Part shown: piece by piece, positions 9,802 to 59,237 of the stretch
Layout: the number at the start of each line of letters is the position of its first letter
Position numbering within the stretch: the first letter of the stretch is position 1
Assembly: GCA_964506945.1 (NCBI GenBank)
Contig: CAZDOC010000007.1
Span: 1,284-65,283 of the forward strand
From: an uncultured Gammaproteobacteria bacterium
GTDB taxonomy: Bacteria; Pseudomonadota; Gammaproteobacteria; CAZDOC01
Direction of reading: 5' to 3'
Length of the DNA stretch: 64,000 nt
Program-made: the position numbers and the translations under genes
Notes under the pieces: model-generated
What the model saw: only the letters and a program-made list of their open reading frames with translations
The model's database searches: none
Told to the model about the DNA's origin: nothing

Positions 9802-9811
9802 GGGGAAGGAC

Positions 9812-11209: not shown

Positions 11210-11416
11210 CTGAGTCGCGGTCTCCCGCCGGCCGCAGGCCTGGTGCGGGGGACCCGTATCTGAACACCGGTGCCATCGTGGTGACGGGATCATCACCGAT
11301 CCCTCTGCCCACTTGCCGAGGAGGGTGCTCTCATCTATTCTTCCCTCCCTCATTCATCGGCAACATCCGCCCTCAGTCTGACATGGTGCGCCAGTGAGAG
11401 AACGGACTGACAAGAC

Positions 11417-16005: not shown

Positions 16006-16269
16006 ATGAAAAACATTGCAAAACCAGTAGGTCTGTCAATCGCTATCGCAGCCGCCGGGCTGTTTGTCGCCGCGCCGGCGGTGGTCAGCGCCACCGGGCA
16101 GGCCGAGGTCCAGTGCTATGGCGTCAATATGTGCAAGGGTCATAACGACTGCAAGACGGCCACCAATGCATGCAAGGGCAAAGCCAAATGCAAGGGCCAG
16201 GGCTTCGTAATGATGTCCAAGAAGGCCTGTGGCCATATTGGCGGTTCGACCACACCCAAGGGGAAATAA
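16006..16269 (+). CDS. BufA2-type bufferin metallophore precursor (signal peptide plus six-Cys core)
   Basis: [29 protein letters not shown] signal, then repeated CKG units. Directly upstream of DUF692 and DUF2063 genes. Start at 16006 has an AGAGGG RBS. Confidence 0.85.
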
Positions 16270-16276
16270 TCGGGCG

Positions 16277-16303
16277 GGCCGGGGAGGGACAGCCTCCCCG
16301 GCC
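16277..16303 (+). other. GC-rich 11-bp hairpin between precursor and MNIO genes
   Basis: GGCCGGGGAGG-GACAG-CCTCCCCGGCC, with no U-tract. Confidence 0.7.
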
Positions 16304-16308
16304 ATGAT

Positions 16309-17945: not shown

Positions 17946-18014
17946 GCCCGGCTTGTCCATGATGGCGCCCCGGGGCCACCCTGCGGTTGCATGCGTGGCC
18001 TCCATGCCGGTCGA

Positions 18015-20657: not shown

Positions 20658-20675
20658 CTCCAGAGCCCTTGTCGC

Positions 20676-23144: not shown

Positions 23145-24173
23145 ATGAAGCAGAGAAGGCCAGCAACGCTGGAAGCCTGTTCCATTGCCAGGGTCATGCT
23201 CAAGGCAGGCCTGCTGCTGTTGATACTGGCGCTTGTCGGTGCTTGTGAGGCACCACTGGATCTCGAGCGCCTCAAGACGCAAGAGAGTAATCCCATCCGC
23301 CGTTCTGATCTGTTTCAGGCCGTGACGGTACAAGGCATGAATGTCGTGATCGTGGGCAGGGACAGCGCCCTGCTGACTTCCCATGACCAGGCCCGGACCT
23401 GGCAGCGTCATGAATTCCCGGGGTTTCCCAGTTTTATCGATATCACCTCCTGCCCAAATGGTGAATTTGTCGCCCTGGATACCGAAGCGGGTGTCTGGGT
23501 CAGTACGGATCAGGGTGACGACTGGCGCAGACATCCTATCAAGACCGATGAGACCGTACAGGCGATCACCTGTGGCAGCGATAATCGTCTCTGGGTGGTG
23601 GGCAGTTTCACCACGATCCTTCAGAGCGGGGACCTCGGCGAGACCTGGTCCAGCCGCTCTTTCGATGTCGATGCCATATTGAACGGTATCCAGTTCTTCG
23701 ATGACAAGCAGGGTATCGTGGTCGGTGAATTCGGTACCTTCATGACCACATCGGATGGTGGCAAGAACTGGTCACGGGATCTGTCCATTCCCAACGAATT
23801 CTATCCACAGGACATGTATTTTGTTGACCCGCGACACGGCTGGGTGGTGGGACTGGGGGGCACGGTATTGTATACCCGGGATGGTGGCCATACCTGGGAG
23901 TCCCAGGACACCGCCACCAAGGTGAGTCTGTACGGGATCGCCATGGTCGGCAAGGAGGCCTTCATCATCGGCCGTGAAGGGGTCCTGCTGAAACGCCAGG
24001 GAGCGCGCTGGCAAAAGCTGACCTATGGCAATCCGGCACGACTGTTCCTCCGCGCCATCTCCAGTCTTGGCGATGGCCGACTCATCGTTGGTGGACAGGC
24101 GGGCGCACTGATGCTGATCGATACACGGCACGGAACATCCATTCGTTCCAGCAATACGGACACCGGAGCCTGA
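23145..24173 (+). CDS. YCF48/BNR-repeat beta-propeller, probable lipoprotein
   Basis: Lipobox-like LVGAC; repeated S/T-x-D-x-G-x-x-W (STDQGDDW, SGDLGETW, TSDGGKNW, TRDGGHTW). Confidence 0.88.
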   Translation: MKQRRPATLEACSIARVMLKAGLLLLILALVGACEAPLDLERLKTQESNPIRRSDLFQAVTVQGMNVVIVGRDSALLTSHDQARTWQRHEFPGFPSFIDITSCPNGEFVALDTEAGVWVSTDQGDDWRRHPIKTDETVQAITCGSDNRLWVVGSFTTILQSGDLGETWSSRSFDVDAILNGIQFFDDKQGIVVGEFGTFMTTSDGGKNWSRDLSIPNEFYPQDMYFVDPRHGWVVGLGGTVLYTRDGGHTWESQDTATKVSLYGIAMVGKEAFIIGREGVLLKRQGARWQKLTYGNPARLFLRAISSLGDGRLIVGGQAGALMLIDTRHGTSIRSSNTDTGA

Positions 24174-26608
24174 TGCCCGTGAATACTGAAAAATTCTTTT
24201 TCCGTTTTGGCAACCTGTTGTTTGATCATCGCAAGCTGGTTTTGAGCTTCATCGCCCTGGTCACGGTGTTTTTTGCCCTCCAGATCCCCTATGTCAGGAT
24301 GCTTTCGGATTTTGCCGATCTGTTGCCGCAGGATCACCCCTACATCAAGCTGCACAACAGTATCCGTGACAATTTCGGCGGAGCCAATATCATTACCCTG
24401 GCGGTCGAGGTGGACAAGGGCACGATCTTCACCAATGACACCCTGGCAAGGATTTTCCGGGTTACCCAGGCCCTCGATAGTGTGGACAACATCAATCACG
24501 ATCTGCTGACCAGCCTGACACATCGCAACACCCGCAAGGTATTCATGACCCCGGACGGATCGGTGCGTTCGCAGAATTACTACGATCCTCATCATGGCCA
24601 TTACAATGACAAGGAATTGAAATCCATGATGGGGGCCGGTGGTCACTATACCGATGCCGAGCTGGCGGCAATGCGCAGCGATGTTCTGGGTAGCTCCAAC
24701 GTCTATGGCGTACTGGTCTCACCGGACATGAAGGCGGCCTTGATCAAGGGCACGCTGAACGAAGGCAAGCTGGATTATGGACGGGTATTCGATCAGATCC
24801 AGGCCATCCGTAAAAAGGAGACGGTTCCAGGCATAAAGATATATGCCACGGGGCATCCTGTACTGGTAGGCTGGGTGGATTCCTACAGCACCCAGATCCT
24901 GGAAATATTCCTGTACACCTTGTTGATTGTACTTGCCATATTGATCGTCTATACACGCCGTCTCTATGGCGTCCTGCTGCCCATGTTCGGCATGGCGGTG
25001 ACCAGTGTCTGGGGTATCGGCTTCATGGGCTTGATGCATTACAACCTGGATCCCCTGATGCTGGTCGTGCCGTTCCTGATTTCGGCGCGGGCACTCTCGC
25101 ATGGGATCCAGAAGGTCGAGCGATATTTCTATGAATTGAACCGGACAGGTGATCGAATCCCGGCCTCACGCAATACCTTCAATGCCCTGTTCCGGCCCGG
25201 TGCACTGGCAATCATAGCCGATGCCGCCGCGCTGTTCATGATCGGCCTGGGTTCCGTGCCTATCAATGACAAGATGGCGATATACGCCTCGTTCTGGGCC
25301 ATGACCATGATCGTCACGGTCCTCATCATGGTGCCGATGCTGCTGGCCTTGTTGCCAACGCCAGCAAATACCGCGATAAAACATACCTATATCCGCAGAC
25401 TGTTTCCAAAGCTGGCCATCATCACGGGCACTCCGGCGCGTTCCAGGATGATCCTTGTCCTGGGCCTGGTGATCCTGTCGATTGGTGCCTATATGGGGAC
25501 CAAGGTCCAGGTGGGCGAGCAGGAACCGGGTTCACCGCTATTGTATCGGGATCATGATTTCAATATCTCATCCGCCAACATCAATTCATTGTTCCCGGGA
25601 TCCGAGGAGATGTTCGTCATCGCCCGCACCGATGACAAGGGTGGAATCAAGCAACCCCAAGTGGTCAAGGCCTTGCAGGATTTTCAGTCCTACATGCTGC
25701 TGGATGACCATCTGGGAGGAGTCAAGGGCATACCGAATCTGATCACCCAGGTCAACCAGCTGACCCGCAACGATGACCCGCGCTGGGCCGTGGTGCCCAA
25801 CCGGGCCTCCGATGTGGGCGGACTCATGTATATGTACATGATGTCATCACCGATTCCGGGTGCTCTGCTGCAATATGTCGATACGGATAACCGCCTGGCC
25901 AACATGGTGTTCTACTATAAGGATCACACCGGCAAGACCATACGCAGGGCTATCCATATGGCCAAGGAGTGGACCCGGAAGGTAGGCGACAAGATCAAGG
26001 GATTGCATATTGAGCTGGCTGGTGGACCTATAGGAGTAACCGCTGCGATCAACGAAGAGGCCTACAAGACCAATCTGATAGTCGTGCCCACGGTTCTGCT
26101 GCTGGTATTGGTGTTCACCATGATTTTTTATCGTTCCTTCCATGCCGGTCTGATGATGCTGGTATCCATGGGTTTCGCTACCACCCTGAGCTATGCCTGC
26201 ATGTATGTATTGGGCATGGGCCTGAATGTCAACACCGTGCCGATGATCGCGGTAGGTATCGGACTCGGAGTCGATTACTCCATCTACATGATGGATCGTA
26301 TCCATGAAGAGATGCCTATCGCCCGCGATCTCCAGGATGCCATACGCCGGGCCGTCGGCACCACGGGTGTTGCCATCAGTTTCACCGCGACGACCTTGAT
26401 TGGCGGTATCATCATGTGGGTGCTGATCTCGGATCTGCGATTCCAGGCGGACTCGGCCCGTCTGCTGATAATCATGCTGATCCTGAATGGTTTTGCGGCC
26501 ATCTTCCTGATCCCGGCCTGGGTGGATATCTTCAAGCCTCGTTTCATTACCGAGGTCACGGGTCATAATGAAGGCAAGCCCATGCGTCTCAGGGACGAGC
26601 CCATATGA
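24173..26608 (+). CDS. RND/MMPL-family membrane transporter
   Basis: Two TM bundles plus two soluble domains; GLGVDYSIY, GVAISFTATTL, SDLRFQ; coupled to the YCF48 gene. Confidence 0.9.
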   Translation: MPVNTEKFFFRFGNLLFDHRKLVLSFIALVTVFFALQIPYVRMLSDFADLLPQDHPYIKLHNSIRDNFGGANIITLAVEVDKGTIFTNDTLARIFRVTQALDSVDNINHDLLTSLTHRNTRKVFMTPDGSVRSQNYYDPHHGHYNDKELKSMMGAGGHYTDAELAAMRSDVLGSSNVYGVLVSPDMKAALIKGTLNEGKLDYGRVFDQIQAIRKKETVPGIKIYATGHPVLVGWVDSYSTQILEIFLYTLLIVLAILIVYTRRLYGVLLPMFGMAVTSVWGIGFMGLMHYNLDPLMLVVPFLISARALSHGIQKVERYFYELNRTGDRIPASRNTFNALFRPGALAIIADAAALFMIGLGSVPINDKMAIYASFWAMTMIVTVLIMVPMLLALLPTPANTAIKHTYIRRLFPKLAIITGTPARSRMILVLGLVILSIGAYMGTKVQVGEQEPGSPLLYRDHDFNISSANINSLFPGSEEMFVIARTDDKGGIKQPQVVKALQDFQSYMLLDDHLGGVKGIPNLITQVNQLTRNDDPRWAVVPNRASDVGGLMYMYMMSSPIPGALLQYVDTDNRLANMVFYYKDHTGKTIRRAIHMAKEWTRKVGDKIKGLHIELAGGPIGVTAAINEEAYKTNLIVVPTVLLLVLVFTMIFYRSFHAGLMMLVSMGFATTLSYACMYVLGMGLNVNTVPMIAVGIGLGVDYSIYMMDRIHEEMPIARDLQDAIRRAVGTTGVAISFTATTLIGGIIMWVLISDLRFQADSARLLIIMLILNGFAAIFLIPAWVDIFKPRFITEVTGHNEGKPMRLRDEPI

Positions 26609-26792
26609 GGGCGCCCGTGGACATTGCTTGCATGAATCGTCTAGAGGCTGAATGGAATGCCACCCCTGCCAGCAAGGAGGATCGGCCCAGTTCGCAGGGA
26701 TATCTCGATAAATCAGACAGTTCCGAATGCCCGCCCAAACCGATATGAAGGAACGGCATGGGCGCCCGGTTATATCTGGAGCATAAGCGATC

Positions 26793-28415
26793 TTGGAGTT
26801 CGAAAAGCGGACACCCGAAGAATCGGAAGGCGCCATCCTCGCGCACAGCCTGCCGCTGAAGAACCACAGGCTCAGGAAGGGTGCCGTTCTGACGGACGCG
26901 GATATCAGGGACCTGGTGGCGGAAGGATACGCGTTCATCAGGGTCGCCATTCCAGGGCAGGATGACATGGTCGAGGATGATGCCGCGCTCAGCCTGGCAA
27001 TGGCTCTCCAGGGGGAGCGGGTCAGGGTCGAACGGCCGTTGATGGGCAGATGTAATCTCTGGGCTGAGTCATACGGTTTGCTGGTGCTTGAGCACGATAT
27101 CCTGGATACCATAAATCTGGTGCATGAGTCGATGACGGTGGCGACCTTGAAACCCTTCGCCATCGTCAGTGATTCACAGTTGCTGGCTACCGTGAAGGCC
27201 ATACCCTATGCGGTTGCCACCGATGTGATCCGGAAGTGTCACGATATTCTGGCCCAACACCCTGCGGCCATACGTGTACGGCCCTTCCAGCGGTATTCGG
27301 TGGGTCTGATTCAGACGAGTCTGGGTACGCCCAAGGACGATTTGCTCGACAAGACCCGAACGGTTCTGAGTAACCGTCTCCACAATCTGAATAGCAGTAT
27401 CGGTTGGGAAGTCCGTTGCCAGCACGAAGAGGAAGCGCTTGTGTCGGCCATACACGAACTCAGGCAACAGGGCGTGGACATGATGGTGATATCGGGGGCC
27501 TCCGCGGTAGTGGATCGCCGTGACGTGATCCCTTCCGCCATTACTGCGGTGGGTGGCGCCGTACGGCATTACGGCATGCCGGTCGATCCCGGCAATCTGC
27601 TCCTGCTGGCCGGCGTGGATGATATCCCGGTGCTGGGCATGCCAGGCTGTGCGCGCTCGCCCAAGTACAATGGTTTCGATATGGTCCTGGAACGACTGAT
27701 TGCCGGCCTGGATGTCAGTGCGCGGGATATCATGTCCATGGGGGTTGGAGGGCTATTGAACGAGATCGGAACCCGCCCACAGCCACGGGTCACCACTCAT
27801 GCCGCTGCTGTCGCCAGCAAGGCAAGGAAGATTACGGCGTTGGTATTGGCCGCTGGCGAGTCGAAACGCATGGGGGATGACAACAAACTGTTGCTTGAGT
27901 TCGGGGGACGGCCCATGATTGCGCATACACTGGAAAACCTGGTGAACTCATGTATCGATGACATCCTGGTAATCACCGGCAAGGACGAGGACAGGATCCG
28001 GCTTGCCCTGGGTCAGTATGATCTCGAGTTCGTTCATAATGCCTGCTATGCGGATGGGATCAGCACATCGATCATCTGTGGCCTCAATCGTCTGGACGAT
28101 AACAGCGAGGCCGTACTGGTGGTACTGGGTGACATGCCGATGATCTCCAGTGAATGTCTGGAAAGACTGGTGACCAGCCTGGACCCAGAAGGTGGCTGTG
28201 AGATATGTGTGCCCGTCTACGATGGAAAATGGGGCAACCCGGTATTATGGTCCCGCAGGTTCTTTCAGGAAATGATGCACCTCGACGGAGATCATGGCGC
28301 CAGGCATCTGCTCTATAAGCATGCCGAGGTGGTAAAGGAGGTAGAGATGCCGGATGCGGGTGTGCTGATGGATTTCGATACCAGGGAATCCCTGTCAGAT
28401 CTTCAGCTTCAATAG
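26793..28415 (+). CDS. MoeA-like molybdopterin-binding domain fused to MocA/MobA-like nucleotidyltransferase
   Basis: GAILAHS...GRCNL...YGMPVDPGNLL...GMPGCARSP, followed by LVLAAGESKRMG..NKLL, LGDMP, GNPVLW, GDHGAR. TTG start. Confidence 0.88.
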   Translation: MEFEKRTPEESEGAILAHSLPLKNHRLRKGAVLTDADIRDLVAEGYAFIRVAIPGQDDMVEDDAALSLAMALQGERVRVERPLMGRCNLWAESYGLLVLEHDILDTINLVHESMTVATLKPFAIVSDSQLLATVKAIPYAVATDVIRKCHDILAQHPAAIRVRPFQRYSVGLIQTSLGTPKDDLLDKTRTVLSNRLHNLNSSIGWEVRCQHEEEALVSAIHELRQQGVDMMVISGASAVVDRRDVIPSAITAVGGAVRHYGMPVDPGNLLLLAGVDDIPVLGMPGCARSPKYNGFDMVLERLIAGLDVSARDIMSMGVGGLLNEIGTRPQPRVTTHAAAVASKARKITALVLAAGESKRMGDDNKLLLEFGGRPMIAHTLENLVNSCIDDILVITGKDEDRIRLALGQYDLEFVHNACYADGISTSIICGLNRLDDNSEAVLVVLGDMPMISSECLERLVTSLDPEGGCEICVPVYDGKWGNPVLWSRRFFQEMMHLDGDHGARHLLYKHAEVVKEVEMPDAGVLMDFDTRESLSDLQLQ

Positions 28416-28422
28416 CGTACCG

Positions 28423-29403
28423 GTGCAGACGATGGCCCGGATCAATGAACAAGGCAGCCGTCGGGATCTGAAGGAGTCTGTTCGGCTGGCTATCGTCCAG
28501 GTCGAGGCCGAACAGTTATCCAACCGGGATTTCTCCCGTTTTGACTGCCAGCAGTTCGACTTGCCCGGGGAGCTGACCGTCTACGATATCACCATCGACC
28601 CGGCGATAATCAATCGCAAGGCCATGCATATCGGCAAGGATGCTAATAACGACTATTTCCTGACCACCCTGATCTATGGTGAGGCGCATATAGAACAACA
28701 GGGTGCGAGTTATACACTGAAACCGGGGGACCTCGCCCTGATGGCCGGCGGGTTACCCTATCTGATCAAATATACCGAACGCAGCAACAGACTGATTGTC
28801 CGTATTCCCTTTCACATCTTCAAGGAACGCCTGGTCAGCTCGGATCACCACTTGATCATCGGCAAGCTGCCCAGTGATGGTATCGGCCTGGTCGTCAACG
28901 ATCTGATGAAACTGGTGGCTTCGGATGCGCGCAAGCTGCCGATCACGGATCAATATACTTTGTCACAGAGTCTTCTGGAACTGACGGGCGCCTTGACCCG
29001 CTCACTGATCAAGACCCTGGATCTGAAGCAGAAAAGCAGGCATCCGGGGCTGTTCAACAGGGTATTGGCCTATATCGAGGAACACTACATGGATCCGGGT
29101 CTGACGCCGAAGATGATCGCGGATGCCAACGGCATATCGACCCGGTATCTGCATAGCCTGTTCCGGCAGTCCGGAAAAACGGTCTTGAGATGGGTATGGG
29201 AACGTCGCCTGAAGGCGGCTCGCAGCGATCTGCTGGATCCCACCCAGATGCAAAAACGTATCAGTGAAATAGCCTTCCGTCAGGGCTTCAACGATTCGGC
29301 GCATTTCAGTCGATCCTTCAGAAACCGTTTTGGAATTTCCCCCACTGAATTACGCCGCCGGGCCGCGGCGGCAAAATCAACGCCTCCAGCCGCGGATACC
29401 TGA
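28423..29403 (+). CDS. AraC family transcriptional regulator
   Basis: C-terminal double HTH (ISTRYLHSLF...ISEIAFRQGFNDSAHFSRSFRNRFGISPTELR) and N-terminal ligand-binding domain. Confidence 0.92.
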   Translation: MQTMARINEQGSRRDLKESVRLAIVQVEAEQLSNRDFSRFDCQQFDLPGELTVYDITIDPAIINRKAMHIGKDANNDYFLTTLIYGEAHIEQQGASYTLKPGDLALMAGGLPYLIKYTERSNRLIVRIPFHIFKERLVSSDHHLIIGKLPSDGIGLVVNDLMKLVASDARKLPITDQYTLSQSLLELTGALTRSLIKTLDLKQKSRHPGLFNRVLAYIEEHYMDPGLTPKMIADANGISTRYLHSLFRQSGKTVLRWVWERRLKAARSDLLDPTQMQKRISEIAFRQGFNDSAHFSRSFRNRFGISPTELRRRAAAAKSTPPAADT

Positions 29404-45992: not shown

Positions 45993-48900
45993 TCAGGCCG
46001 TCTGGCGATGCTCGACGCTGACGGTTTCACCTCGCTGCGCATGGATGTGCTCATACAGGCTCATCGGGGAATTGTGTGAGCAGTCGATGATGACCCCCTG
46101 CCCATGCAGGGCATCCTGAAGGGCGGCGCTTATGGTGTGCAGCGGCGCGCCGCCGCCTTCTCCCATGCCCTTGGCGCCGTTATAGCTGAACGGTGAGGGG
46201 GTCTCGATATTGGCATACTTCAGGATTGGCATGTTGTTGATCGTGATCGGCGCATAATCGGTGAACGATCCCGACAGGACATTGCCCTCATCGTCGTAGG
46301 GCATGGTCTCTATCAGGGCCGCGCCCAGTCCATGGGCAGTGGCTCCATGGACCTGGCCCTCGACGATCATGTGATTGATGACCTTGCCGCAATCATCGAC
46401 GGCGGCATAATCCAGGATCCGGGTCTGGCCGGTTTTCACATCGACCTCGACCACCGCCATATGCAGTTGCAGGGCATAGGTGAGGGTGAGATTGCCATAT
46501 TTCCTGTCCAGATCGGGGATCTGGAACGGTGGCACGTACACATGCCGGGCATTGAGGCTGATATCCCGCAGTTCCTCCGGCAAGGTCGCGTTGTTGTAGT
46601 TCACCATGTTCGACAGGGCCCAGTAGTTGACGGACTTGTCGGTACCGCTCACCCTGACTTCAGGGCCTTCATTGCCCATGCCGAATTCCAGATCGTCCTC
46701 ATTGGCCTCGAGGGCATGCGCCGCCAGTTTTCTCATTTCCGATTTGAGTTTGGTGACGGCGCCATGAATCGAGGACAGCCCGGTTACCGCGAACTGGCTG
46801 GCATAGGTGCCACAGGTGCCGGTATGCGAGTTGCGTTCGGTATCAAAACCGGTTTTTACGATGACCTGACTGGTGCCGATGCCCAGTTCATCCGCCACCA
46901 CCTGGGCAGCGGTCGTTTCGTGGCCTTGTCCCTGAGGAAAGGAGCCGACGCAAACGGAGACGGAACCGTCGAGGTCCAGTTTTACTATCGCTGTCTGGGA
47001 ATTGCCGGAGAACGGCAGAAAAGGATTGATGATCCTCGCCTGCGCAAAATTATTGGTGCCGGAATCCAGGGTGGTGCCTATGCCGATACCCAGCAGGCGG
47101 CCCTGCGCGCGCGCCTCGTCCTGTTTCCGCCGCCACGCGTCCCAGCCGATGAGTTCCTTGGCCCTGGCCATCATCGCGGGGAAATCCCCGGAATCGTAGA
47201 TACAGCCATTCGGTGTGGTGTAGGGGAACTCTTCGATGTAGTTGCGCAGCCTGATCTCGTCCGCGGGGATCCCCAGTTCATGACCGCAGATATCGATAAC
47301 ACGCTCCATGAACCACATGTGCGGCAGGCGCGAATAACCGCGGTTGGGTGCGCACGGCCCCTTGTTGGTCATCACCTGGCTGAAATCGATGCGCACATTG
47401 CGCAGCTTGTAGGCCGCCGGCAGTACCTGGGACCAGATCACGCATCCCAGGGGTTCATACCGGGGGTAGGCGCCACAGTCATCGACATGGCGGGAACGCA
47501 GGCCGGTGATGACGCCGCGCTCGTCCAGGGCCACCTCGGTATCGAAATAGTCCCGTTCGCTGCCATGCCCCCCCGCCTGCATGTATTCACTGCGGGTCTC
47601 CACCCATTTGACGGGTCTGCCGCCCAGTTTGCGCGAGGCCAGCGCCGCCAGTGTCATATAGGGGTAGTTGCAGATCTTGTTGCCGAAACTGCCGCCGATG
47701 TCATGGGTGCGCAGGCGGATCTGATCGATACGGACATTGAGAGCGCTCGCGATCATGGTCAGAGGGACCGTCATGGCGGTATTCGAGAAGAAATCGAGTT
47801 TGTCGCGGGGATCCCAGGTGGCCACGACCGCGTTGGTTTCCAGTGGCGTGCTGCTGAAGCGATGAAACTTCAGATGATCGATCCGGATCACATGCGCGGC
47901 GTCCCTGAAGGCCGCATCGACATCGCCGTATTCATAAACCCCTTGCCAGGTCCTGTTCGTTCCTGCGGACTCATGCAATACCACCTTGTCCTCCAGTGCC
48001 TCGCTACAGGTGACGACGGCGGGCAGCTTTTCATATTCCACGCCGATCAACTGCGCCGCATCCGTGGCTATCTCCACGGATTCCGCGATCACTGCGGCAA
48101 CGGGATCCCCCTGGTAAACCACCTTGTCGACCGCCAGCGCATAGTCCTTGATACTGGCGCTGGGCTCCTGGCCGATTTGCATGAAGGGAACCATGAGTTC
48201 GGTGATCTCCCTGCCGGTGAGCGTGCCCAGGACACCGGGCAGGGATTCGGCCTGGGAGACATCGATTTCCAGTATGCGGGCATGTGCATAGGGTGAGCGT
48301 ACCAGGACCATGTGCAACATGCCGCCGGCTTGCAGATCATCCACATACAATCCCTGGCCCCGGATGAGGCGCATGTCTTCCTTGCGGGCCAGGGCGCCGG
48401 ATTGTCGCGGCATGGCAAGTATCCGTTCCATCCGGGATTTGGCATCCTGCTGCAGGACCCGCGCATCCTCCGGCTGTTCCGCCAGGCCCGTGTCCCGGGC
48501 CTTCGCTACGCCGGTGGTGGAGACGGTCGTGGCCTGTTGACCCCCACGACCCAGCAGAAAGGCGATCAGACGGGAATACCAGGGGCTCTTCGCGGGTGCC
48601 TGTACAGCCCTGCTCGCCATCGCCTCCGGAGTCAGTGATTGTTGCAGGCTGTTGATCAGTACGTTGATCTCTTTTTCCGCATAGCCTCGCAGACCCCCGC
48701 CGGCCAGGGACAGGATCTTGCCTGCCAGAACGGTCTCGGCGCTCCATTTGATCCGGGTTGCATCGCCCAGGGGTTCGAGCCGGAACGCAGAGACCATCTG
48801 GTAGGCCCCCTGCATGACCTTGCCCTTGCCGATATAGCGGATACTCTCCGGAGGCAGGGCTTCATCGAGGATCAATCGAGTCGATGCCAGCGCGCGGATC

Positions 48901-49067
48901 TTGCCGATGCCCACCTTTACCCGCAGATTTGCCGTTTTTTCATCGAGCATCTCCAGGCTGTGATAGGTCGGCAGCAGGGGGGCGAATTTTTCCGGATCCG
49001 AGAGCAGCTCGAATACCTTCTCCCTGGGGAGTTCGATCCTGAATTCGCCGTCAAATTTCATCTCCAT
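45993..49067 (-). CDS. Xanthine-oxidase-family Mo-cofactor large subunit with N-terminal CoxG (SRPBCC) domain
   Basis: First ~145 aa are CoxG-like. Then RKEDMRLIRGQGLYVDD, RSPYAHARI, GGSFGNK, PNRGYSR, GQGHET, VHGATAHG, AKGMGEGG, all in one ORF. Confidence 0.88.
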   Translation of the reverse strand: MEMKFDGEFRIELPREKVFELLSDPEKFAPLLPTYHSLEMLDEKTANLRVKVGIGKIRALASTRLILDEALPPESIRYIGKGKVMQGAYQMVSAFRLEPLGDATRIKWSAETVLAGKILSLAGGGLRGYAEKEINVLINSLQQSLTPEAMASRAVQAPAKSPWYSRLIAFLLGRGGQQATTVSTTGVAKARDTGLAEQPEDARVLQQDAKSRMERILAMPRQSGALARKEDMRLIRGQGLYVDDLQAGGMLHMVLVRSPYAHARILEIDVSQAESLPGVLGTLTGREITELMVPFMQIGQEPSASIKDYALAVDKVVYQGDPVAAVIAESVEIATDAAQLIGVEYEKLPAVVTCSEALEDKVVLHESAGTNRTWQGVYEYGDVDAAFRDAAHVIRIDHLKFHRFSSTPLETNAVVATWDPRDKLDFFSNTAMTVPLTMIASALNVRIDQIRLRTHDIGGSFGNKICNYPYMTLAALASRKLGGRPVKWVETRSEYMQAGGHGSERDYFDTEVALDERGVITGLRSRHVDDCGAYPRYEPLGCVIWSQVLPAAYKLRNVRIDFSQVMTNKGPCAPNRGYSRLPHMWFMERVIDICGHELGIPADEIRLRNYIEEFPYTTPNGCIYDSGDFPAMMARAKELIGWDAWRRKQDEARAQGRLLGIGIGTTLDSGTNNFAQARIINPFLPFSGNSQTAIVKLDLDGSVSVCVGSFPQGQGHETTAAQVVADELGIGTSQVIVKTGFDTERNSHTGTCGTYASQFAVTGLSSIHGAVTKLKSEMRKLAAHALEANEDDLEFGMGNEGPEVRVSGTDKSVNYWALSNMVNYNNATLPEELRDISLNARHVYVPPFQIPDLDRKYGNLTLTYALQLHMAVVEVDVKTGQTRILDYAAVDDCGKVINHMIVEGQVHGATAHGLGAALIETMPYDDEGNVLSGSFTDYAPITINNMPILKYANIETPSPFSYNGAKGMGEGGGAPLHTISAALQDALHGQGVIIDCSHNSPMSLYEHIHAQRGETVSVEHRQTA

Positions 49068-49070
49068 CGT

Positions 49071-49559
49071 TCAGTCCTCACGCATGACCCTGGCGGCTTG
49101 TTGAATGGATTTGATGATATTCTGGTAGCCGGTACAACGGCAGACATTACCCGCCAGACGCCGGCGGATGTCCTTGAGATCGGGATCGGGCTGCTCGGCC
49201 AGAAGCGCCAGGGATGACATCAGCATGCCCGGGGTGCAATAGCCGCATTGCAGGCCATGGTTTTCCGAAAAGGCCTGCTGCAGCGGATGCAACACACCGT
49301 CTTTTTCCAGACCCTCGACGGTCAGGATCTCACCGCCATCGGCCTGCACGGCGAGCAGGGTGCAGGATTTCACCGCGTCCCCGTCCAGGATCACGGTACA
49401 GGCCCCGCAATAGCTGGTATCACAGCCGATATGGGTGCCCGTCAGGCCCAGCACCTTGCGAATGAACTCGACCAGCAGCAGGCGGGGTTCTATCCGTTGC
49501 CGGTGGGTCTTGCCGTTGACGATAATGGTGACGGGGACGATCTGCTTGTGCTCAGACAT
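49071..49559 (-). CDS. 2Fe-2S small subunit (CoxS/CutS-like)
   Basis: [33 protein letters not shown]. Start at 49559. Confidence 0.93.
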
Positions 49560-50448
49560 ATTCTGTTTTCCCGTTGACTTGTTTCCCACGCGCGCGTTCG
49601 ATGGCGGTATGTGCCGCCTTGATGAACAGGGAATGCAGCATGCTGCGCTTGAATGACGCCGACCCCCGCGAGTCCGATGGCGGATCCGAGCGGGAGATGA
49701 TTGCCTCGGCGGCCAGTTCGATATTCTTGCTGGACAGTTCCTGGCCGCGCAGGACGGCTTCGGCTTCTTCGCAGATCACCGGTCGGGGACCGGCGGAGCC
49801 GAGCACCAGGCGCACGTCCTTGCAGACATCGTCATCTGCCAGGGTCAGCTGTACGCCCGCCGTGGCGGCGGGGTAGGCCGGGGCGGCCTTCTTGAATCCC
49901 AGGTAGGCGCCGCCGCTGCGGCCTTGCGGGATGCGAAAGCGGATCTCCCTGACCAGTTCGGAATCCTTCAGTGCCGTGGTATAGGAGTCCTTGATGAAAT
50001 CCCTGATGGACAGGACCCGCTCGCCCGAGGCACCCTGGCAGACGACCTCGGCATCCAGGGTATGCAACAATGACGGCCAGTCACAACTGGGATCGGCGCT
50101 GCTGACGGAGCCGCCAATCGTGCCACGACTGCGCACCTGTGGGTCGGCGATGCCATTGGCGCAGTCTCTGACGATGGGGAACATCGCCGCGATATCCGAG
50201 CGGGCGATACGGGCGTGCGTGGACAGGGCGCCGATACAGATCCGGCCGTCTTCCTTGACCATGTGACGCAGGTTCGGCAGTCGTCCGATGTCGATCAGTG
50301 CCGTGGGTTCATCCATACGCAGTTTCAGTATCGGGATCAGGGATTGTCCACCGGCAAGCGGTTTCGCGCCTTCCCCGAGTTCCGACAGCAGGCGGATCGC
50401 CTCATCCAGGGTGGCGGGGCGGTAATAATCAAAGGCTGCGGGATACAT
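49552..50448 (-). CDS. FAD-binding medium subunit (CoxM/CutM-like)
   Basis: [35 protein letters not shown] region. Confidence 0.93.
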
Positions 50449-51041: not shown

Positions 51042-51917
51042 GTGGCACTGAGCAGTGTGCAGACCTATTACAGCCCCGACAGTGAAGCGGAGGTCGTCCG
51101 CTTGCTGGACAAGCACGAAGACAGCGCCCTGATCGTCGCCGGCGGCACCTTCCTGCACGGCCTCAGCTCCCGTGGCCTGCTGATGGGTATCGAGGCCCTG
51201 ATCGATATCCAGAACCTGCGTCTGGATTCCATACAGACCGATGACGGTAGCCTCGGCCTGGGCGCGACCACGCGCTTCGAACAACTCAAGACCCGCCTCA
51301 GCCCCATGCATGCCCCCTGGCTGGGCGCGGTCCTCGATGCCCTCGAGTATCCCCCGGTGCAGGTCCTGAACGCGGCCACCATCGGTGGCTGCATTGCCTC
51401 GTCCTGCCCCTTTTTCGACCTGCCGGTCAGTTTCCTGGCCCTGAACGGCACGGTGCAGATCATGGGTCCGGCAGGGGTCCGGGAGACCCCGCTGGAGGGC
51501 CTCTACACGGGTCTGTTCGAAACCGCGCTGGAAGGCAATGAATTCATCCGCGGGATACGGCTCCAGGCACCCGCCACATCCGCGGCCAGTGCTTTTCTCA
51601 AGCTCGAGAGCAATGCCAACGACCTGGCCATACTCAATCTTGCCATCAGCGTGTCCCTGGATGGATCGGGCCGATGCAGCGGGGTGCGGGTCTTTGCCGG
51701 TGGTGGTGTCGGCGAGGTCCCGGTCAGGCTGTCGGGCGCCGAGCAGGTGCTGGTCGGCGCCCGGCTCGATGACGAGACCCTGACGGCGGCGAGCCAGGCC
51801 GCACTACAGGATGTCGATCCGATCTCCGACCATCGTGCCTCGGCGGAGTACCGCAAGGCCATGACCGGGGTGCTGACCCGGCGCGTACTGCAAGCGATCC
51901 GTGAACGTCTCGCATAG
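51042..51917 (+). CDS. FAD-binding subunit, xanthine dehydrogenase family
   Basis: IVAGGTFL, VLNAATIGGCIA, SDHRASAEYR. GTG start. Confidence 0.9.
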   Translation: MALSSVQTYYSPDSEAEVVRLLDKHEDSALIVAGGTFLHGLSSRGLLMGIEALIDIQNLRLDSIQTDDGSLGLGATTRFEQLKTRLSPMHAPWLGAVLDALEYPPVQVLNAATIGGCIASSCPFFDLPVSFLALNGTVQIMGPAGVRETPLEGLYTGLFETALEGNEFIRGIRLQAPATSAASAFLKLESNANDLAILNLAISVSLDGSGRCSGVRVFAGGGVGEVPVRLSGAEQVLVGARLDDETLTAASQAALQDVDPISDHRASAEYRKAMTGVLTRRVLQAIRERLA

Positions 51918-51926
51918 AGGGGAACC

Positions 51927-52406
51927 ATGATGAAGCAGGTGATAGCGCTCGAAATCAATGGTGAGGTGCAGGAACTGCCGGTGGCGCCCTATGACAGCCT
52001 GCTGCATTGCCTGCGTGATGGTGCGAACCTGCTGGCCGCGAAGCGTGGCTGTGATTCCGGAGGCTGTGGTTGCTGCACGGTACTCATCGATGGCAAGGCG
52101 GTCTATTCCTGCATGACCCTGGCCATGTCGGTACAGGGCAGGAAGATCACCACGGTCGAAGGCTTGTCCCGGGGTGGAGCGCTGGAACCCATTCAACAGG
52201 CCTTCATCGATACCGGCGCGGTCCAGTGTGGCTATTGCACCTGTGGCATGATGATGGCCTCGAAAAATCTGCTGGACGACAACCCTCATCCCAGTGAGGC
52301 AGAGATACGCAAGGGTATCTCCGGGAACCTGTGCCGTTGTACCGGCTACAGCAAGATCGTCGATGCCGTGCGCATGGCCGCTGGCGAGCCTGGCCCGGAA
52401 GCATGA
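51927..52406 (+). CDS. 2Fe-2S subunit, xanthine dehydrogenase family
   Basis: KRGCDSGGCGCCTV, QCGYCTCG, GNLCRCTGY. Confidence 0.93.
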   Translation: MMKQVIALEINGEVQELPVAPYDSLLHCLRDGANLLAAKRGCDSGGCGCCTVLIDGKAVYSCMTLAMSVQGRKITTVEGLSRGGALEPIQQAFIDTGAVQCGYCTCGMMMASKNLLDDNPHPSEAEIRKGISGNLCRCTGYSKIVDAVRMAAGEPGPEA

Positions 52407-52482
52407 AGGCGATCGTTCCAGCAGCCACCGCCAGGATGTCACGTCTCCCCCGAACAGAGCGCCCATCTACGAGAATGCCACC

Positions 52483-54813
52483 ATGTCAGAGCTGAATGTC
52501 ATCGGTAAGAGCATCCGCAGGCCGGATGCCCACGACAAGGTCACGGGAGGCCGGCATTTCCCGGTGAATGTCAGTCTGCCGGGCATGCTGCATGCCCGCT
52601 TGCTGCGCAGCCCGTTTCCCCATGCACGCATCGTCAGCATCGATACCTCGGAGGCCGAGGCCCTGCCTGGCGTCAGGGCCGTGCTGGTTCCCGACGAGGT
52701 TCCGCAGATCCGCCTGACCCCGGTCTACTTCACCCCGGTACAGTCGCCGACCATGGTCCAGGATTTCATGGTGATGACCCGCGATGTGCGCTGGGTCGGC
52801 CAACCCGTGGCCGCGGTGGCGGCGTCATCCGCGGAGATTGCCGAGGCGGCAATCGAACTGATCGATGTGGAGTACGAGGAACTCCCCGCGGTTTTCGATC
52901 CCGAGGAAGCGATGGGCGAGGGTGCGCCGCAGTTGCACCCGGGTGCCGAACACAACATCGCCAAGCATGAGGTCTTCAGCATGGGCGACCTGGAGCAGGG
53001 CTTCGCCGAGGCGGATCACATCTTCGAAGGGGTCTATCAGACCCAGCGGGTGCATACCTGTTACATGGAACCCCGCGTCTGCGTCGTGGACAGCGATACC
53101 CAGGGTCGTCTGACCGTTCATTCCTCCATGCAACATGCCTTCGGCCTCAGGGAAAAGCTGGCCTTTGCCCTGGGTATCCCGGAAAGCCGGGTCAATGTCA
53201 TCAGGCCCGCCTATATCGGGGGCGGCTTTGGCGGCAAGCTGGACATGGGCTTCATCGAGCCGATCGCGGCCCTGCTGAGCCTCAAGACCGGCCGGCCCGT
53301 GCGCGCCGAGCAGACCCGCGCCGAGGACTTCATCAGTACCGCGCGTCACCCCATCAAGGTCTATCTGAAGACCGGCGTGAAGAACGATGGCAGCTTTACC
53401 GCGCGTTATATCAAGAGCGTGCTCGATACCGGCGCCCATGCCACGCATGGGTCGGAGGTCATCATGGTGCACGGCCTGTATGGGACCTTGTTCCCGTGGA
53501 CCTGTCCCAACCAGACCTGGGAAGGGTTTGCCGTCTATACCAACAACATGATCGGTGGCGGTTTCAGGGGCTACGGGGCGCCGCAGGGATGCTTCGCCGT
53601 CGAGTCGCAGAATGACGAGATCTGTGAGTCCCTGGGCCTGGACCCGATCGCCTTCCGCCTGAAGAACACCCGCAGGGAAGGGGACCCCCATCCCGTCCTG
53701 CAGGGGCACAAGCTGAACAGCTATCGCCTGGACGAGTGTCTCAGGACGGGGGCGCAGCATATAGGTTTCGAGCGGCGCCAGGCCGCCGGTTCGTCTGCCG
53801 GGGCCATCAAGCGGGGCATGGGCTTCGCCTGTCATCCGCTGTGGGTCAGCGGCTGCGTGGGGTTCCCGGATATCTACGAGCATTCCGGCGCGGTGATCAA
53901 GCTGAACCGGGATGCCACCGCGGACATCATCAGCGCCTGCGTGGATATCGGCTCCGGGCAGACCACCATGCTGACCCAGGTCGTGGCCGAGGAACTGGGT
54001 CTGCCGGCCGAATCCGTGCGCCTGGTCTATGCCGATACCGATACCGCTCCCTTCGATGCCCCCACGCATGCCAGCCGGGCAACCTATGCCGCCGGCGCGG
54101 CTACCCGGGCCGCCGCCATCGAGGCGAGAAAGCGCCTGTTCGAGGTCGCCGGCCATGTGATGGAGGCCAATCCGGAAGACCTGCTCATCCAGGATGGCAA
54201 GGTCATGGTCAAGGGGGCCCCGGATTCGGCCATGCCGATGCAGGACATCATCGCCAGGGCCGAATCCCCCTTCATACAGGTAGGCGAACAGGGCCCGTTT
54301 CCAACCACGCTGGAGGAGAAGGGGACCATCATGGGCATGGCCAGCATGGCGCCACCGAGCAACCCCACCCCGGTCGCGGCGGAGTTCGTCGAGCTGGAAG
54401 TCGATACGGAGACCGGGGAGGTCAGGATCCTGCGCGTGGTCTATGCTCATGACATAGGCAAGCTGATCCATCGTTGCTCGGCCGAGGGACAGGTCGAGGG
54501 CGGCTTCCAGCAGGGCATGGGCTATGCCCTGATGGAGAACATGGTCTTCGACCAGGAGACGGGCGCCTGCCTGACGGGCGACTTCCTGGATTACAAGATG
54601 CCGACGGCCATGGAGATGCCCGCATCGATAGAGAGCATCTTCATAGAATCCAATGAACCCAGCGGCCCCTACGGCGCCAAGAGTCTCTCGGAGATGTGCA
54701 TCATTCTCCCGGCCGCGGCCATCGCCAATGCCGTCTATAACGCCATCGGGGTCAGGATCACGGAACTGCCGATCACACCGGAGAAGATCCTCAGGGCCCT
54801 GGGCAGGATCTGA
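52483..54813 (+). CDS. Mo-cofactor-binding large subunit, xanthine dehydrogenase family
   Basis: DAHDKVTG, RSPFPHARI, GGGFGGK, FRGYGAPQG, GQVEGG..QGMG, AKSLSE. Start at 52483 (track gives 52294). Confidence 0.92.
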   Translation: MSELNVIGKSIRRPDAHDKVTGGRHFPVNVSLPGMLHARLLRSPFPHARIVSIDTSEAEALPGVRAVLVPDEVPQIRLTPVYFTPVQSPTMVQDFMVMTRDVRWVGQPVAAVAASSAEIAEAAIELIDVEYEELPAVFDPEEAMGEGAPQLHPGAEHNIAKHEVFSMGDLEQGFAEADHIFEGVYQTQRVHTCYMEPRVCVVDSDTQGRLTVHSSMQHAFGLREKLAFALGIPESRVNVIRPAYIGGGFGGKLDMGFIEPIAALLSLKTGRPVRAEQTRAEDFISTARHPIKVYLKTGVKNDGSFTARYIKSVLDTGAHATHGSEVIMVHGLYGTLFPWTCPNQTWEGFAVYTNNMIGGGFRGYGAPQGCFAVESQNDEICESLGLDPIAFRLKNTRREGDPHPVLQGHKLNSYRLDECLRTGAQHIGFERRQAAGSSAGAIKRGMGFACHPLWVSGCVGFPDIYEHSGAVIKLNRDATADIISACVDIGSGQTTMLTQVVAEELGLPAESVRLVYADTDTAPFDAPTHASRATYAAGAATRAAAIEARKRLFEVAGHVMEANPEDLLIQDGKVMVKGAPDSAMPMQDIIARAESPFIQVGEQGPFPTTLEEKGTIMGMASMAPPSNPTPVAAEFVELEVDTETGEVRILRVVYAHDIGKLIHRCSAEGQVEGGFQQGMGYALMENMVFDQETGACLTGDFLDYKMPTAMEMPASIESIFIESNEPSGPYGAKSLSEMCIILPAAAIANAVYNAIGVRITELPITPEKILRALGRI

Positions 54814-57694: not shown

Positions 57695-58351
57695 ATGACT
57701 CGTTATGTAATGGTCGCGGACATGAACCGTTGCGTTGGCTGCCAGACCTGCACCGCGGCCTGCAAACATACCAACGCCACCCTGCCGCAGGTGGAATGGC
57801 GCAAGGTGCTCGATATCGAGTGGGGTGAGTACCCCGATGCCCACCGCGTCTTCATGCCCGTCGGTTGCCAGCACTGCGCCGATCCCCCCTGCATGAGCGT
57901 CTGTCCCAGCACCGCCACCGGGCAGCGCGAGGACGGCCTGGTCACCATCGATTACGATCTCTGCATCGGCTGTGGATACTGCATGGTGGCCTGCCCCTAC
58001 CAGGCCCGCTACAAGGTCTCGGAGCCGCACTTCGCCTATGGCGATACGCCGATGGCATCGGAGGCCGCGCGCTTCGATGAAAAGCGTATCGGTGTCGCCC
58101 AGAAATGCACCTTCTGCGCGGATCGCGTGGATGACGGCCTGGCCAGGGGCCTGACGCCGGGGCTCGATCCCGATGCCACGCCCGGATGCGTCAACGCCTG
58201 TATCGCCGATGCCCTCACCTTTGGCGATATCGAGGATGAAAACAGCAATGTCTCCCGCCTGCTGGAGGAGAACACCTGGTTCCAGATGCACGCCGAGCTG
58301 GAGACGGAGACCGGCTTTTATTACCTGTGGGACCAAGAGCCAGGGGAGTGA
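57695..58351 (+). CDS. 4Fe-4S dicluster subunit (PadC/DmsB-like)
   Basis: CVGCQTCTAAC, CQHCADPPCMSVCP, CIGCGYCMVACPY, KCTFC, PGCVNAC. Confidence 0.9.
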   Translation: MTRYVMVADMNRCVGCQTCTAACKHTNATLPQVEWRKVLDIEWGEYPDAHRVFMPVGCQHCADPPCMSVCPSTATGQREDGLVTIDYDLCIGCGYCMVACPYQARYKVSEPHFAYGDTPMASEAARFDEKRIGVAQKCTFCADRVDDGLARGLTPGLDPDATPGCVNACIADALTFGDIEDENSNVSRLLEENTWFQMHAELETETGFYYLWDQEPGE

Positions 58352-58358
58352 ACCCAAA

Positions 58359-59237
58359 GTGACGAGATATGGCAGTATTCTGCAAACCTACTGGGACTGG
58401 CGCGCCGCCGGCAACTTCATCTTTGGCGGCACCGGCAGCGGCCTGCTGATCGGTGCGGTCATGCTGGCCTATCCCGGCCCCCTGGACCCGGTGCTGGGCC
58501 TGCTGGCACTGGCCTTCATGGGCCTGGGGCTGTTCCTGGTCTGGCTGGAGATCGGCAAACCGCTGCGTTTCCTGCATGTGTACTTCCATCCGCAGACCTC
58601 GTGGATGACCCGCGAAGGGAGTGTCGCCGGCCTGCTGTTCCCGGTGGCCCTGCTGGCCATGTATCTGGGATCCGCCTGGCTGGTCGCGATCACGGGCCTG
58701 CTTGCGGCCATGTTCCTCTATTGTCAGGCCAGGATACTGCAGGCCTCGAAAGGGGTCCCTGCCTGGCGCGATCCCGCCATGGTGCCGCTGATCCTCGGCA
58801 CGGGTCTGGTCGAGGGTACGGCAATCGCCCTGGCCGCCCTGTGTCTGGGCGCCGGGCCGTCGCCGTCGCTGGTGACGGCCTTCGCCGTATTACTCCTGCT
58901 GCGGGCCTATCTGTGGAAGCGATACGGCAACAGTCTGCATCGGCATGATGCCCCCCGGGAGACACTGGCCGTCATCGATGGCATGGACGGCCTCACGCTG
59001 TGGGGCGGGAATATCGTCCCCCTGCTGCTGCTTATCGTCGCCTCGCTGGTCCCCGCCCTGGCCCCGTTGTCGCTCCTCCTCGCGGCGGCAGGCGCACTCT
59101 TCAGTGGCTGGCACATGAAATACGCCCTCGTCAGGCGGGCCTCCCAGCTACAGGGCTACGCCTTCGGCAGGCTGCGCAAGGGGCGGCCCAGGATCAAGCC
59201 CCCGGTACGCAGGCAGCCGGATCGTTTTGTGTTGTAG
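58359..59237 (+). CDS. Membrane anchor subunit (PadD/DmsC/NrfD-like)
   Basis: QTYWDWRAAGNFIFGGTGSG, EIGKPLR, SWMTRE; multiple TM segments. GTG start at 58359. Confidence 0.85.
   Translation: MTRYGSILQTYWDWRAAGNFIFGGTGSGLLIGAVMLAYPGPLDPVLGLLALAFMGLGLFLVWLEIGKPLRFLHVYFHPQTSWMTREGSVAGLLFPVALLAMYLGSAWLVAITGLLAAMFLYCQARILQASKGVPAWRDPAMVPLILGTGLVEGTAIALAALCLGAGPSPSLVTAFAVLLLLRAYLWKRYGNSLHRHDAPRETLAVIDGMDGLTLWGGNIVPLLLLIVASLVPALAPLSLLLAAAGALFSGWHMKYALVRRASQLQGYAFGRLRKGRPRIKPPVRRQPDRFVL

Follow-up and report, generated by a model that had tools for sequence, protein, structure and literature searches.

The 64,000-nucleotide window analyzed here, a stretch of contig CAZDOC010000007.1 from an uncultured Gammaproteobacteria bacterium, encodes a predicted three-subunit molybdenum (Mo) hydroxylase of the xanthine oxidase family whose large, catalytic subunit carries a CoxG-like domain at its N-terminus (Table 1). 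Read on the minus strand, the gene for the flavin adenine dinucleotide (FAD)-binding medium subunit (M) is followed by that for the [2Fe-2S] small subunit (S) and, immediately downstream, by the fused gene for the large subunit (L); the S stop codon lies 3 nt before the CoxG-L ATG. The fused gene is an uninterrupted open reading frame (ORF) with 0 stops that encodes a protein of 1024 amino acids (aa). Both the single ORF uniting CoxG with a CoxL-type subunit and the M-S-L gene order had been noted in a first-pass annotation of this DNA; the ORF call, the Pfam domains and the coordinates of the Pfam-identified M and S genes bear them out.

Table 1. The fused CoxG-L gene, its parts and its operon; positions refer to the 64,000-nucleotide window.
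Feature	Positions	Strand	Description and basis
Fused CoxG-L gene	45993..49067	-	1024-aa xanthine-oxidase-family molybdenum hydroxylase large subunit, CoxG module N-terminal; ORF and Pfam
CoxG/SRPBCC domain, residues 1-145	48633..49067	-	Pfam COXG, PDB sequence matches, AlphaFold2 (AF2) model
Variable flexible linker, residues 146-226	48390..48632	-	Low conservation, low pLDDT
Amphipathic Trp/Arg/Leu tail of the CoxG module, S161-R174 (SPWYSRLIAFLLGR)	48546..48587	-	Family motif; proposed peripheral membrane-binding helix
CoxL/Qor-type catalytic part, residues 227-1024	45996..48389	-	Pfam, PDB match 1t3q_B, AF2 model
Active-site loop P574-R580 (PNRGYSR)	47328..47348	-	Clade signature; alignment
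E970 codon in GMGEGG	46158..46160	-	Invariant position; conserved catalytic-type glutamate of the family
Shine-Dalgarno-like GAGGA	49075..49079	-	7 nt upstream of the CoxG ATG, within the end of the S gene
[2Fe-2S] small subunit S, 172-aa ORF	49071..49589	-	Pfam Fer2_2 and Fer2
FAD-binding medium subunit M	49552..50448	-	Pfam FAD_binding_5 and CO_deh_flav_C

The N-terminal domain matches the Pfam COXG profile at residues 7-145 with 67.8 bits against a cut-off of 22.2 (E 1.1e-18), covering profile positions 1-139 of 140. Sequence matches among solved structures are 2ns9_A (E 2.4e-13) and the Mycobacterium smegmatis CoxG 8uds_D (E 2.2e-5), and the AF2 prediction, a monomer model built on a 75-sequence alignment (mean predicted local distance difference test, pLDDT, 80.9; predicted template modelling score, pTM, 0.77), shows a helix-grip SRPBCC fold with strands over residues 2-116 and a long helix at 126-144. 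We assign the domain, by these matches, to the CoxG family (Pfam PF06240) of the SRPBCC superfamily. A phmmer search with residues 1-178 against 1.84 billion representative proteins returned 880 relatives; the fused CoxG is 42-44% identical to stand-alone CoxGs and 32% identical to the CoxG of HmfA, the large subunit of 2-furoyl-CoA dehydrogenase. With regard to a basic, Lys-rich face at the cavity opening, eleven positions of the domain in the alignment are Lys or Arg in at least 80% of sequences, and the net charge of the domain is about zero.

A domain-architecture search, as the first-pass annotation had proposed, recovered COXG joined to a large subunit in at least 154 protein clusters, using words from residues 1-235 only and restricting the candidates to full-length proteins; the feature exceeds by far what chance would produce. 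The 120 of these clusters that are listed all carry COXG and large-subunit domains, a few being clipped by contig ends; members are nearly all 1000-1050 aa long, and several lie on megabase-scale contigs, some of 3.5-4.7 Mb that are possibly whole chromosomes. We compared the CoxG-L junction in 14 independent assemblies, namely the window and 13 related loci from Gammaproteobacteria metagenome-assembled genomes, Thiotrichaceae and Candidatus Thiodiazotropha. No stop codon crosses the junction in any of the 14. The linker, 76-97 aa long in the relatives, is free of Met in 7 of the 13 and holds no conserved internal start; GGAGG stands a few bases before the CoxG ATG in all 13 relatives, at the same place as the GAGGA of the window. 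Upstream of the fused gene, the S gene is present in every related locus whose contig reaches far enough, and the M-S-(CoxG-L) operon is constant among the window and every related locus with a long enough contig. Given this comparative evidence from assemblies, linker Met residues and Shine-Dalgarno-like sites, a masked stop or frameshift is very unlikely: the first scenario that the first-pass annotation had named as fatal to the fusion is not seen in any relative, and the second, translation only from internal Met codons, finds no support. We rejected internal translation starts since the linker Met residues are not conserved. The comparison indicates that the fused gene is real and not an artefact.

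The catalytic part contains the Pfam domains Ald_Xan_dh_C (PF01315, residues 237-349), MoCoBD_1 (PF02738, 370-610) and MoCoBD_2 (PF20256, 635-947), all far above their cut-offs, and was modelled confidently, with pLDDT mostly above 90. Its best solved relative is QorL of quinoline 2-oxidoreductase (1t3q_B, E 4e-110, residues 218-1008 aligned), after which come CoxL/CutL and a nicotine-pathway dehydrogenase. The Qor enzyme shares the three-subunit organization of the window enzyme, but QorL has no CoxG, and its active-site loop reads GAYRGVGF where the window protein has APNRGYSR and the HmfA-like sequence TGLVRGFGG. The loop PNRGYSR called in the first-pass annotation was confirmed at residues 574-580; it is exactly conserved in 103 of the 120 listed members, with ANRGYSR in one more, and N575, R576, G577, Y578, S579 and R580 are invariant in the 75-sequence alignment, giving a clade loop of (A/S)PNRGYSR. 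Also invariant in the 75 sequences are the GGSFGNK motif at position 458, E970 in GMGEGG, and G967, G969 and G971. We take E970, from established knowledge of xanthine-oxidase-family enzymes, to be the catalytic-type glutamate.

The first-pass annotation had further concluded that the enzyme is not a CO dehydrogenase, and this holds. Form I enzymes are defined by the loop (A/S)YRCS(F/L)R with its Cu-binding Cys, and form II enzymes by AYRGAGR (PMC13240472); both motifs are absent here. No NCBIfam equivalog reaches its cut-off for the fused protein, the CO dehydrogenase models scoring 424.6 bits against a cut-off of 991 (TIGR02416) and 499.8 against 950 (NF040766). A form I [MoCu]-CO dehydrogenase is ruled out by the APNRGYSR loop together with these sub-cut-off scores, and a form II CoxL-like protein by the loop. 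As the loop differs from both forms and N575-R580 are invariant, we class the catalytic part as a CoxL/Qor-branch Mo hydroxylase of the xanthine oxidase family that belongs to a distinct clade. The clade extends beyond the fused proteins: Mesorhizobium loti pML2037 encodes an unfused homolog of 821 aa, 55.6% identical, with the loop GSNRGYSR. That gene (locus L003, 6995-9460) has no adjacent M and S genes; it adjoins genes for a FAD-dependent monooxygenase, an amidohydrolase and FCD-type regulators, and a SRPBCC gene lies ~10 kb away. A literature search for the NRGYSR motif found no paper. A heteroaromatic substrate is plausible for the window enzyme, and a small nitrogen-containing compound would be consistent with both the NRGYSR loop and the amidohydrolase-type genes nearby.

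Between the two domains lies a linker that the first-pass annotation had described as a low-complexity stretch of ~60 aa containing an amphipathic segment. The linker is there, at an actual length of ~80 aa (residues 146-226), and so is the amphipathic segment, at residues 161-174; the latter is more than a feature of the linker, being the conserved tail of a CoxG subfamily. The frequency of the majority residue, at 0.17-0.39 per 10-residue block over the rest of the linker, reaches 0.54 in the tail. A family motif, G-W-[LF]-[SA]-R-[LI]-L-R-x-L-x-G, is present in 101 of 114 full-length members. The hydrophobic positions of the tail are i, i+1, i+4, i+5 and i+8, its mean net charge is +2.2, and its mean hydrophobic moment is 0.53 versus 0.30 ± 0.16 for other 12-mers of the linkers. 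In the AF2 model, pLDDT falls below 50 at residues 154-163 and 173-198; the tail forms a short helix (163-171) flanked by disorder and, in this monomer, is packed on neither the L domain nor the SRPBCC domain. No transmembrane (TM) segment was detected in the linker of the window protein, the maximum over a 19-residue Kyte-Doolittle window (KD19) being 0.59, and a TM helix at this place was rejected on that value.

The same tail occurs in CoxG proteins of other organization. Among the 150 closest of the 880 CoxG relatives, which made up our tail survey, ~14 end in a TM helix and at least seven end, past a flexible spacer, in a Trp/Arg/Leu tail, such as PWWRRLLRRFRSWVAG, LWQRLLAWWRSR, SWLVRVLRALGLRR and GWLSKLRALLMKF. 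The C-terminus of an HmfA-like protein (...RSPGWIARLLALLGVRR) aligns with window residues 160-171 (...KSPWYSRLIAFL), and a core motif, G-W-[LF]-x-R-[LI]-L-x-x-L, is common to the tails of the fused family, of stand-alone CoxGs and of HmfA. Because this terminal tail is shared, we regard it as a part of the CoxG module that occupies the membrane-anchor position in stand-alone, N-fused and C-fused proteins alike. Whereas M. smegmatis CoxG has a C-terminal TM helix, the fused window protein lacks one and has an amphipathic helix of ~12 residues. A second, stand-alone CoxG of the same genome (~185 aa) consists of a SRPBCC domain, a spacer and a 21-residue hydrophobic helix with a KD19 of 2.27 (LWIAAGIASALLIGLLAFYAL). 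Its gene lies about 3 kb past the end of the window (G000:C7:68226-68642, minus strand; L001:1375-1932, minus strand) with a LysR-type regulator alongside, and the protein's partner may be the second, unfused M-S-L enzyme of the window described below.

Among the closest known systems is the CoxG of the [MoCu]-CO dehydrogenase (PDB 8uds). Like the window module, it is a SRPBCC/COXG domain encoded together with M, S and L subunits and leads over a flexible linker to a membrane-associating element; unlike it, it has a CO dehydrogenase for a partner, which the window enzyme with its PNRGYSR loop is not. In the report on the M. smegmatis protein (Kropp 2025, PMC12202499), CoxG bound menaquinone in its cavity, was required for cells to oxidize CO but dispensable for enzyme activity in lysates, was tethered to the membrane through a TM helix at its C-terminus, and was modelled at the CoxL/CoxM interface with its opening towards the FAD. 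The same text mentions CoxG fused to CoxL in Bradyrhizobium japonicum as well as in Alkalilimnicola ehrlichii, homologs of CoxG that accompany family members other than CO dehydrogenase, and earlier work in which the loss of CoxG from a carboxidotroph cut CO dehydrogenase activity by only about half (summarized in PMC12202499). Beyond CO oxidation, the SRPBCC component HpdA3 is essential for 3-hydroxypyridine dehydrogenase (bioRxiv 10.1101/2020.01.08.898148). Since the substrates of the CoxG-associated enzymes (CO, furoyl-CoA and picolinate) are unrelated to one another and hydrophilic, a shared role on the electron-acceptor side suggests itself.

A mechanism for the fused enzyme can be outlined on this analogy. 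A complete CoxG module, made up of a SRPBCC domain, a short spacer and an amphipathic tail, sits on the N-terminus of the catalytic subunit of an M-S-L hydroxylase. The substrate would be oxidized at the Mo site, and two [2Fe-2S] clusters would relay the electrons to the FAD of M. On its leash of ~80 residues, the CoxG domain would take a respiratory quinone from the membrane, present it at the L/M interface near the FAD and then return the quinol; the tail would substitute for the classical C-terminal TM helix of CoxG and hold module and enzyme against the membrane's cytoplasmic face. Topologically, no helix that crosses the membrane could join two cytoplasmic domains, which would account for the fused forms having a tail and not a TM helix. 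We infer quinone binding, docking near the FAD and membrane binding by the tail from the likeness to M. smegmatis CoxG and from the anatomy of the protein. As a whole, a CoxG module acting as a tethered quinone shuttle on an M-S-L hydroxylase, kept at the membrane by its tail and joined to the enzyme by read-through, is in our judgment the best explanation and a probable one, if some way from secure. The first-pass annotation had suggested a tethered quinone-shuttle or membrane-docking domain, and homology to M. smegmatis CoxG and conservation of the module make that the best-supported reading.

Several observations count against the tethered shuttle. The sole characterized CoxG is a remote relative in sequence (E 2e-5). 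The family mean hydrophobic moment of 0.53 lies below the 95th percentile of the control linker segments (0.60), and the tail of the window protein is more hydrophobic and less amphipathic than the family mean, falling outside the top hydrophobic-moment windows of its own linker. AF2 confidence is low for the tail and the last SRPBCC helix (pLDDT about 50-57). Finally, the tail shows stricter conservation than generic membrane-targeting helices usually do, and a specific protein-protein contact fits such conservation equally well.

This last point leads to the principal competing explanation, in which the tail is a protein-protein docking peptide that clamps the CoxG module onto M, S or L, or onto a second protomer, leaving the enzyme soluble and meeting its acceptor without membrane binding. 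The conservation of the tail is indeed sequence-specific, with Trp in 101/101, Arg in 78/101 and Leu in 68/101 of the motif-bearing members, and the SRPBCC-bearing proteins SpmC and PicA3 were reported to lack TM or signal sequences (bioRxiv 10.1101/2020.01.08.898148). However, in stand-alone CoxGs the tail stands, after a flexible spacer, exactly where other CoxGs have their TM helix; its many Trp and Arg residues are of the kind typically seen at membrane interfaces; and the AF2 monomer leaves it undocked from both L and the SRPBCC domain. We consider a docking peptide unlikely on balance, while giving it the most weight among the alternatives.

Less likely again is that the SRPBCC domain handles a ligand other than quinone, such as a hydrophobic substrate or product, a cofactor or a maturation intermediate, and serves the Mo site and not the FAD site. 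SRPBCC/START domains bind many hydrophobic ligands, and both Ca. Thiodiazotropha and the window have nearby genes for BNR, MMPL/RND, DUF1302 and DUF1329 proteins, a kind of set that often goes with the uptake of hydrophobic compounds. Yet CoxG-type domains occur with enzymes whose substrates are hydrophilic and very different from one another (CO, 2-furoyl-CoA, picolinate and 3-hydroxypyridine), and what these enzymes have in common is the electron-transfer chain. CoxG is also dispensable for assembly of the active site, because, according to PMC12202499, its loss from the carboxidotroph cost CO dehydrogenase only about half of the activity and CoxG-less M. smegmatis lysates contained active enzyme.

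That the protein is HmfA itself is highly improbable. In its favour are the JGI name "2-furoyl-CoA dehydrogenase large subunit" given to six family members (P0032, P0102, P0103, P0114, P0119 and P0120) and the fact that HmfA is also ~1015 aa long and holds both domains. For comparison we took the HmfA-like protein that a canonical hmfABCDE cluster encodes on a plasmid of Cupriavidus pinatubonensis. There, a LysR regulator is followed by L (1012 aa), the FAD and 2Fe-2S subunits, an AMP-binding ligase, an enoyl-CoA hydratase, a major facilitator superfamily (MFS) transporter and XdhC. Against HmfA identity stand the opposite domain order (COXG at 852-989 of 1012), a catalytic part only 35% identical with the loop TGLVRGFGG versus APNRGYSR, and the gene order, L-M-S in the hmf cluster versus M-S-L in the window. 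The 35% also falls below the threshold for HmfA homologs, set at 45% identity or more in work in which Cupriavidus basilensis HmfA measures 1015 aa (PMC8091172). Scanning of ORFs from across the window turned up neither an AMP-binding ligase (hmfD) nor an enoyl-CoA hydratase (hmfE). With domain order, loop and gene order all differing and no hmfD/E among the scanned ORFs, HmfA identity is ruled out, and the "2-furoyl-CoA dehydrogenase" label is an over-annotation for the NRGYSR clade. An equally remote prospect is that the fusion is an assembly or annotation artefact or yields two proteins from internal starts: Met213 and Met219 do lie in the linker of the window protein, but the frames intact in 14 assemblies, the relatives without any linker Met, the conserved site before the CoxG ATG, and a length and architecture common to at least 154 clusters speak against it.

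Like the window protein, the HmfA of hmfABCDE clusters (Koopman 2010; Donoso 2021, PMC8091172) is an L subunit of ~1010 aa with COXG and a G-W-x-x-R-L-L-x-x-L tail, the CoxG parts being 32% identical; unlike it, it carries CoxG C-terminally, so that the tail forms the very end of the protein, and its L-M-S genes are followed by a CoA ligase and a hydratase. SpmABC, PicA and HpdA1-4 are further Mo hydroxylases other than CO dehydrogenase that carry or need a SRPBCC domain (bioRxiv 10.1101/2020.01.08.898148). In SpmC and PicA3 the domain is part of the [2Fe-2S] subunit, and HpdA3 is a separate TM-anchored protein, whereas in the window it is on the N-terminus of L; a SpmC/PicA3-type fusion is ruled out, since the window S has Fer2 and Fer2_2 only. 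The first-pass annotation had called CoxG normally a separate protein; given the known fusions (CoxG-CoxL, HmfA, SpmC and PicA3), fusion in itself is not unusual.

How the fusion may have arisen can be read from an unfused neighbourhood. The closest stand-alone tailed CoxG (P0125) is 189 aa long, ends in the tail and is 42% identical to the window CoxG. Its metagenomic contig (L020) encodes M (297 aa), S (160 aa), coxG and coxL, with the coxL ATG overlapping the coxG stop as ATGA (AAAATGAGT); the adjacent CoxL, which starts MSWVGKSLRRKEDDRLIRG..., is 61% identical to window residues 225-299. We interpret this M-S-coxG-coxL set as the window operon's unfused equivalent. Read-through between neighbouring coxG and coxL genes that overlapped, in an M-S-G-L operon of this kind, is the most likely origin of the fusion; loss of the coxG stop codon and some growth of the linker would have produced the fused gene. 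Because the fused CoxG shares more identity with stand-alone CoxGs (42-44%) than with the CoxG of HmfA (32%), the N-terminal and the C-terminal (HmfA) fusions were probably independent events. Among 400 genomes sampled evenly from the same class, two had the N-fused form, the window's own and one other; one genome had an open frame of 1004 aa that includes the domain, and stand-alone relatives occurred in a few. The family is sparse among sequenced species and well represented in metagenomes.

The genes around the operon are suggestive as a clue to the substrate. Beside it, in the closest relatives and in the window, are the F420 genes cofC, cofD, cofE and npdG and a lactate/oxalate-formate-type MFS transporter. 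Other neighbours in the window context are M24, M20, cyclase and FAA hydrolase genes, two PanE-like reductases and a LeuA-like synthase, and the island also holds a molybdenum-bis(pyranopterin guanine dinucleotide) (Mo-bisPGD) enzyme with a 4Fe-4S partner, an electron-transfer flavoprotein (ETF), an ETF-quinone oxidoreductase (ETF-QO) and several amidohydrolase-type genes. A second, divergent Mo-hydroxylase operon, M2-S2-L2, occupies 51042-54813 on the plus strand; its L2 has no CoxG and the loop GGGFRGYGA, and its best NCBIfam matches, XdhA and the 4-hydroxybenzoyl-CoA reductase alpha subunit, are both below their cut-offs.

CoxD-like and CoxE-like genes follow the fused gene on its 3' side in Denitratisoma oestradiolicum and Ca. 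Thiodiazotropha, with AraC_binding_2 regulators nearby, and D. oestradiolicum adds XdhC and a MocA-like gene after them. In the whole genome of the window, no clear CoxE was found; there is a borderline VWA_CoxE match of 26.6 bits within a 669-aa frame (C28:7241-7585). Either maturation differs here or these genes fall within the ~3% that the assembly is missing. The D. oestradiolicum island (LR778301.1; L021 1-18290) carries two Mo-bisPGD enzymes with 4Fe-4S and DmsC-like proteins, a stand-alone COXG, a CofC-family gene and then M-S-(CoxG-L). As this betaproteobacterium has the same kind of island, the link between the hydroxylase, a PadBCD-like enzyme and a CofC-type gene spans two classes.

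Elsewhere in the window, 23145-29403 on the plus strand encodes a BNR/Ycf48-like protein, a MMPL/RND transporter and an AraC_binding_2 regulator, which recur near the fused operon; in Ca. Thiodiazotropha the same BNR/MMPL/AraC_binding_2 set is present twice, together with DUF1302 and DUF1329 (L022 405-8286 and 15533-23075). The BNR/MMPL set has the look of a system for uptake or export that is regulated together with the enzyme. At 26793-28415 on the plus strand lies the gene for a 540-aa protein with a MobA/MocA-like nucleotidyltransferase at residues 349-512, whose first ~340 residues have no Pfam match at E 1e-5. In Denitratisoma, XdhC is followed by a MocA-like gene that matches it in size and type, and the window protein probably makes the cytosine dinucleotide cofactor for the hydroxylases. 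Five window ORFs of 322-520 aa likewise had no Pfam match at E 1e-5: 17991-19448, 19503-20681 and 58173-59237 on the plus strand, and 9791-11353 and 16036-17004 on the minus strand.

The quinone-shuttle principle of CoxG, CoxG-L fusions and SRPBCC-fused hydroxylases have already been published, and the gain made here is incremental. We found no description in the accessible literature of the N-terminal topology in a distinct NRGYSR clade, Kropp's CoxG-CoxL fusions having been compared by description only, nor of the unfused precursor operon or of a recurrent amphipathic tail replacing the TM anchor. A conserved family other than CO dehydrogenase, with a putative shuttle covalently tethered to the catalytic subunit, would extend the recent explanation, quinone extraction by CoxG, of how the soluble CO dehydrogenase delivers its electrons to the respiratory chain. 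CoxG has been fused to L, probably independently, in at least two orientations, to which published work adds fusions to S, and a short amphipathic tail recurs in place of a TM anchor. Together, the tethered family, the fusions and the recurrent tail support CoxG-type shuttling as general for the enzyme family. A database label is also corrected, "2-furoyl-CoA dehydrogenase" being wrong for the clade.

A broader proposal, which we put forward tentatively and rate somewhat below even, sees in the tail a TM-less membrane anchor that is general to a CoxG subfamily. Lying in the plane of the membrane, such a tail would allow CoxG to be fused to either end of L or to S, and in the present case it would wire an NRGYSR hydroxylase, in a conserved Gamma-/Betaproteobacteria island with a PadBCD-like Mo enzyme and F420 or CofC-like genes, directly to the quinone pool. 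The family offers a 1:1, single-chain system in which shuttling can be tested; if the tail is indeed a general TM-less anchor, the family would be a tractable single-chain model of electron transfer from soluble xanthine-oxidase-family enzymes to membrane quinones.

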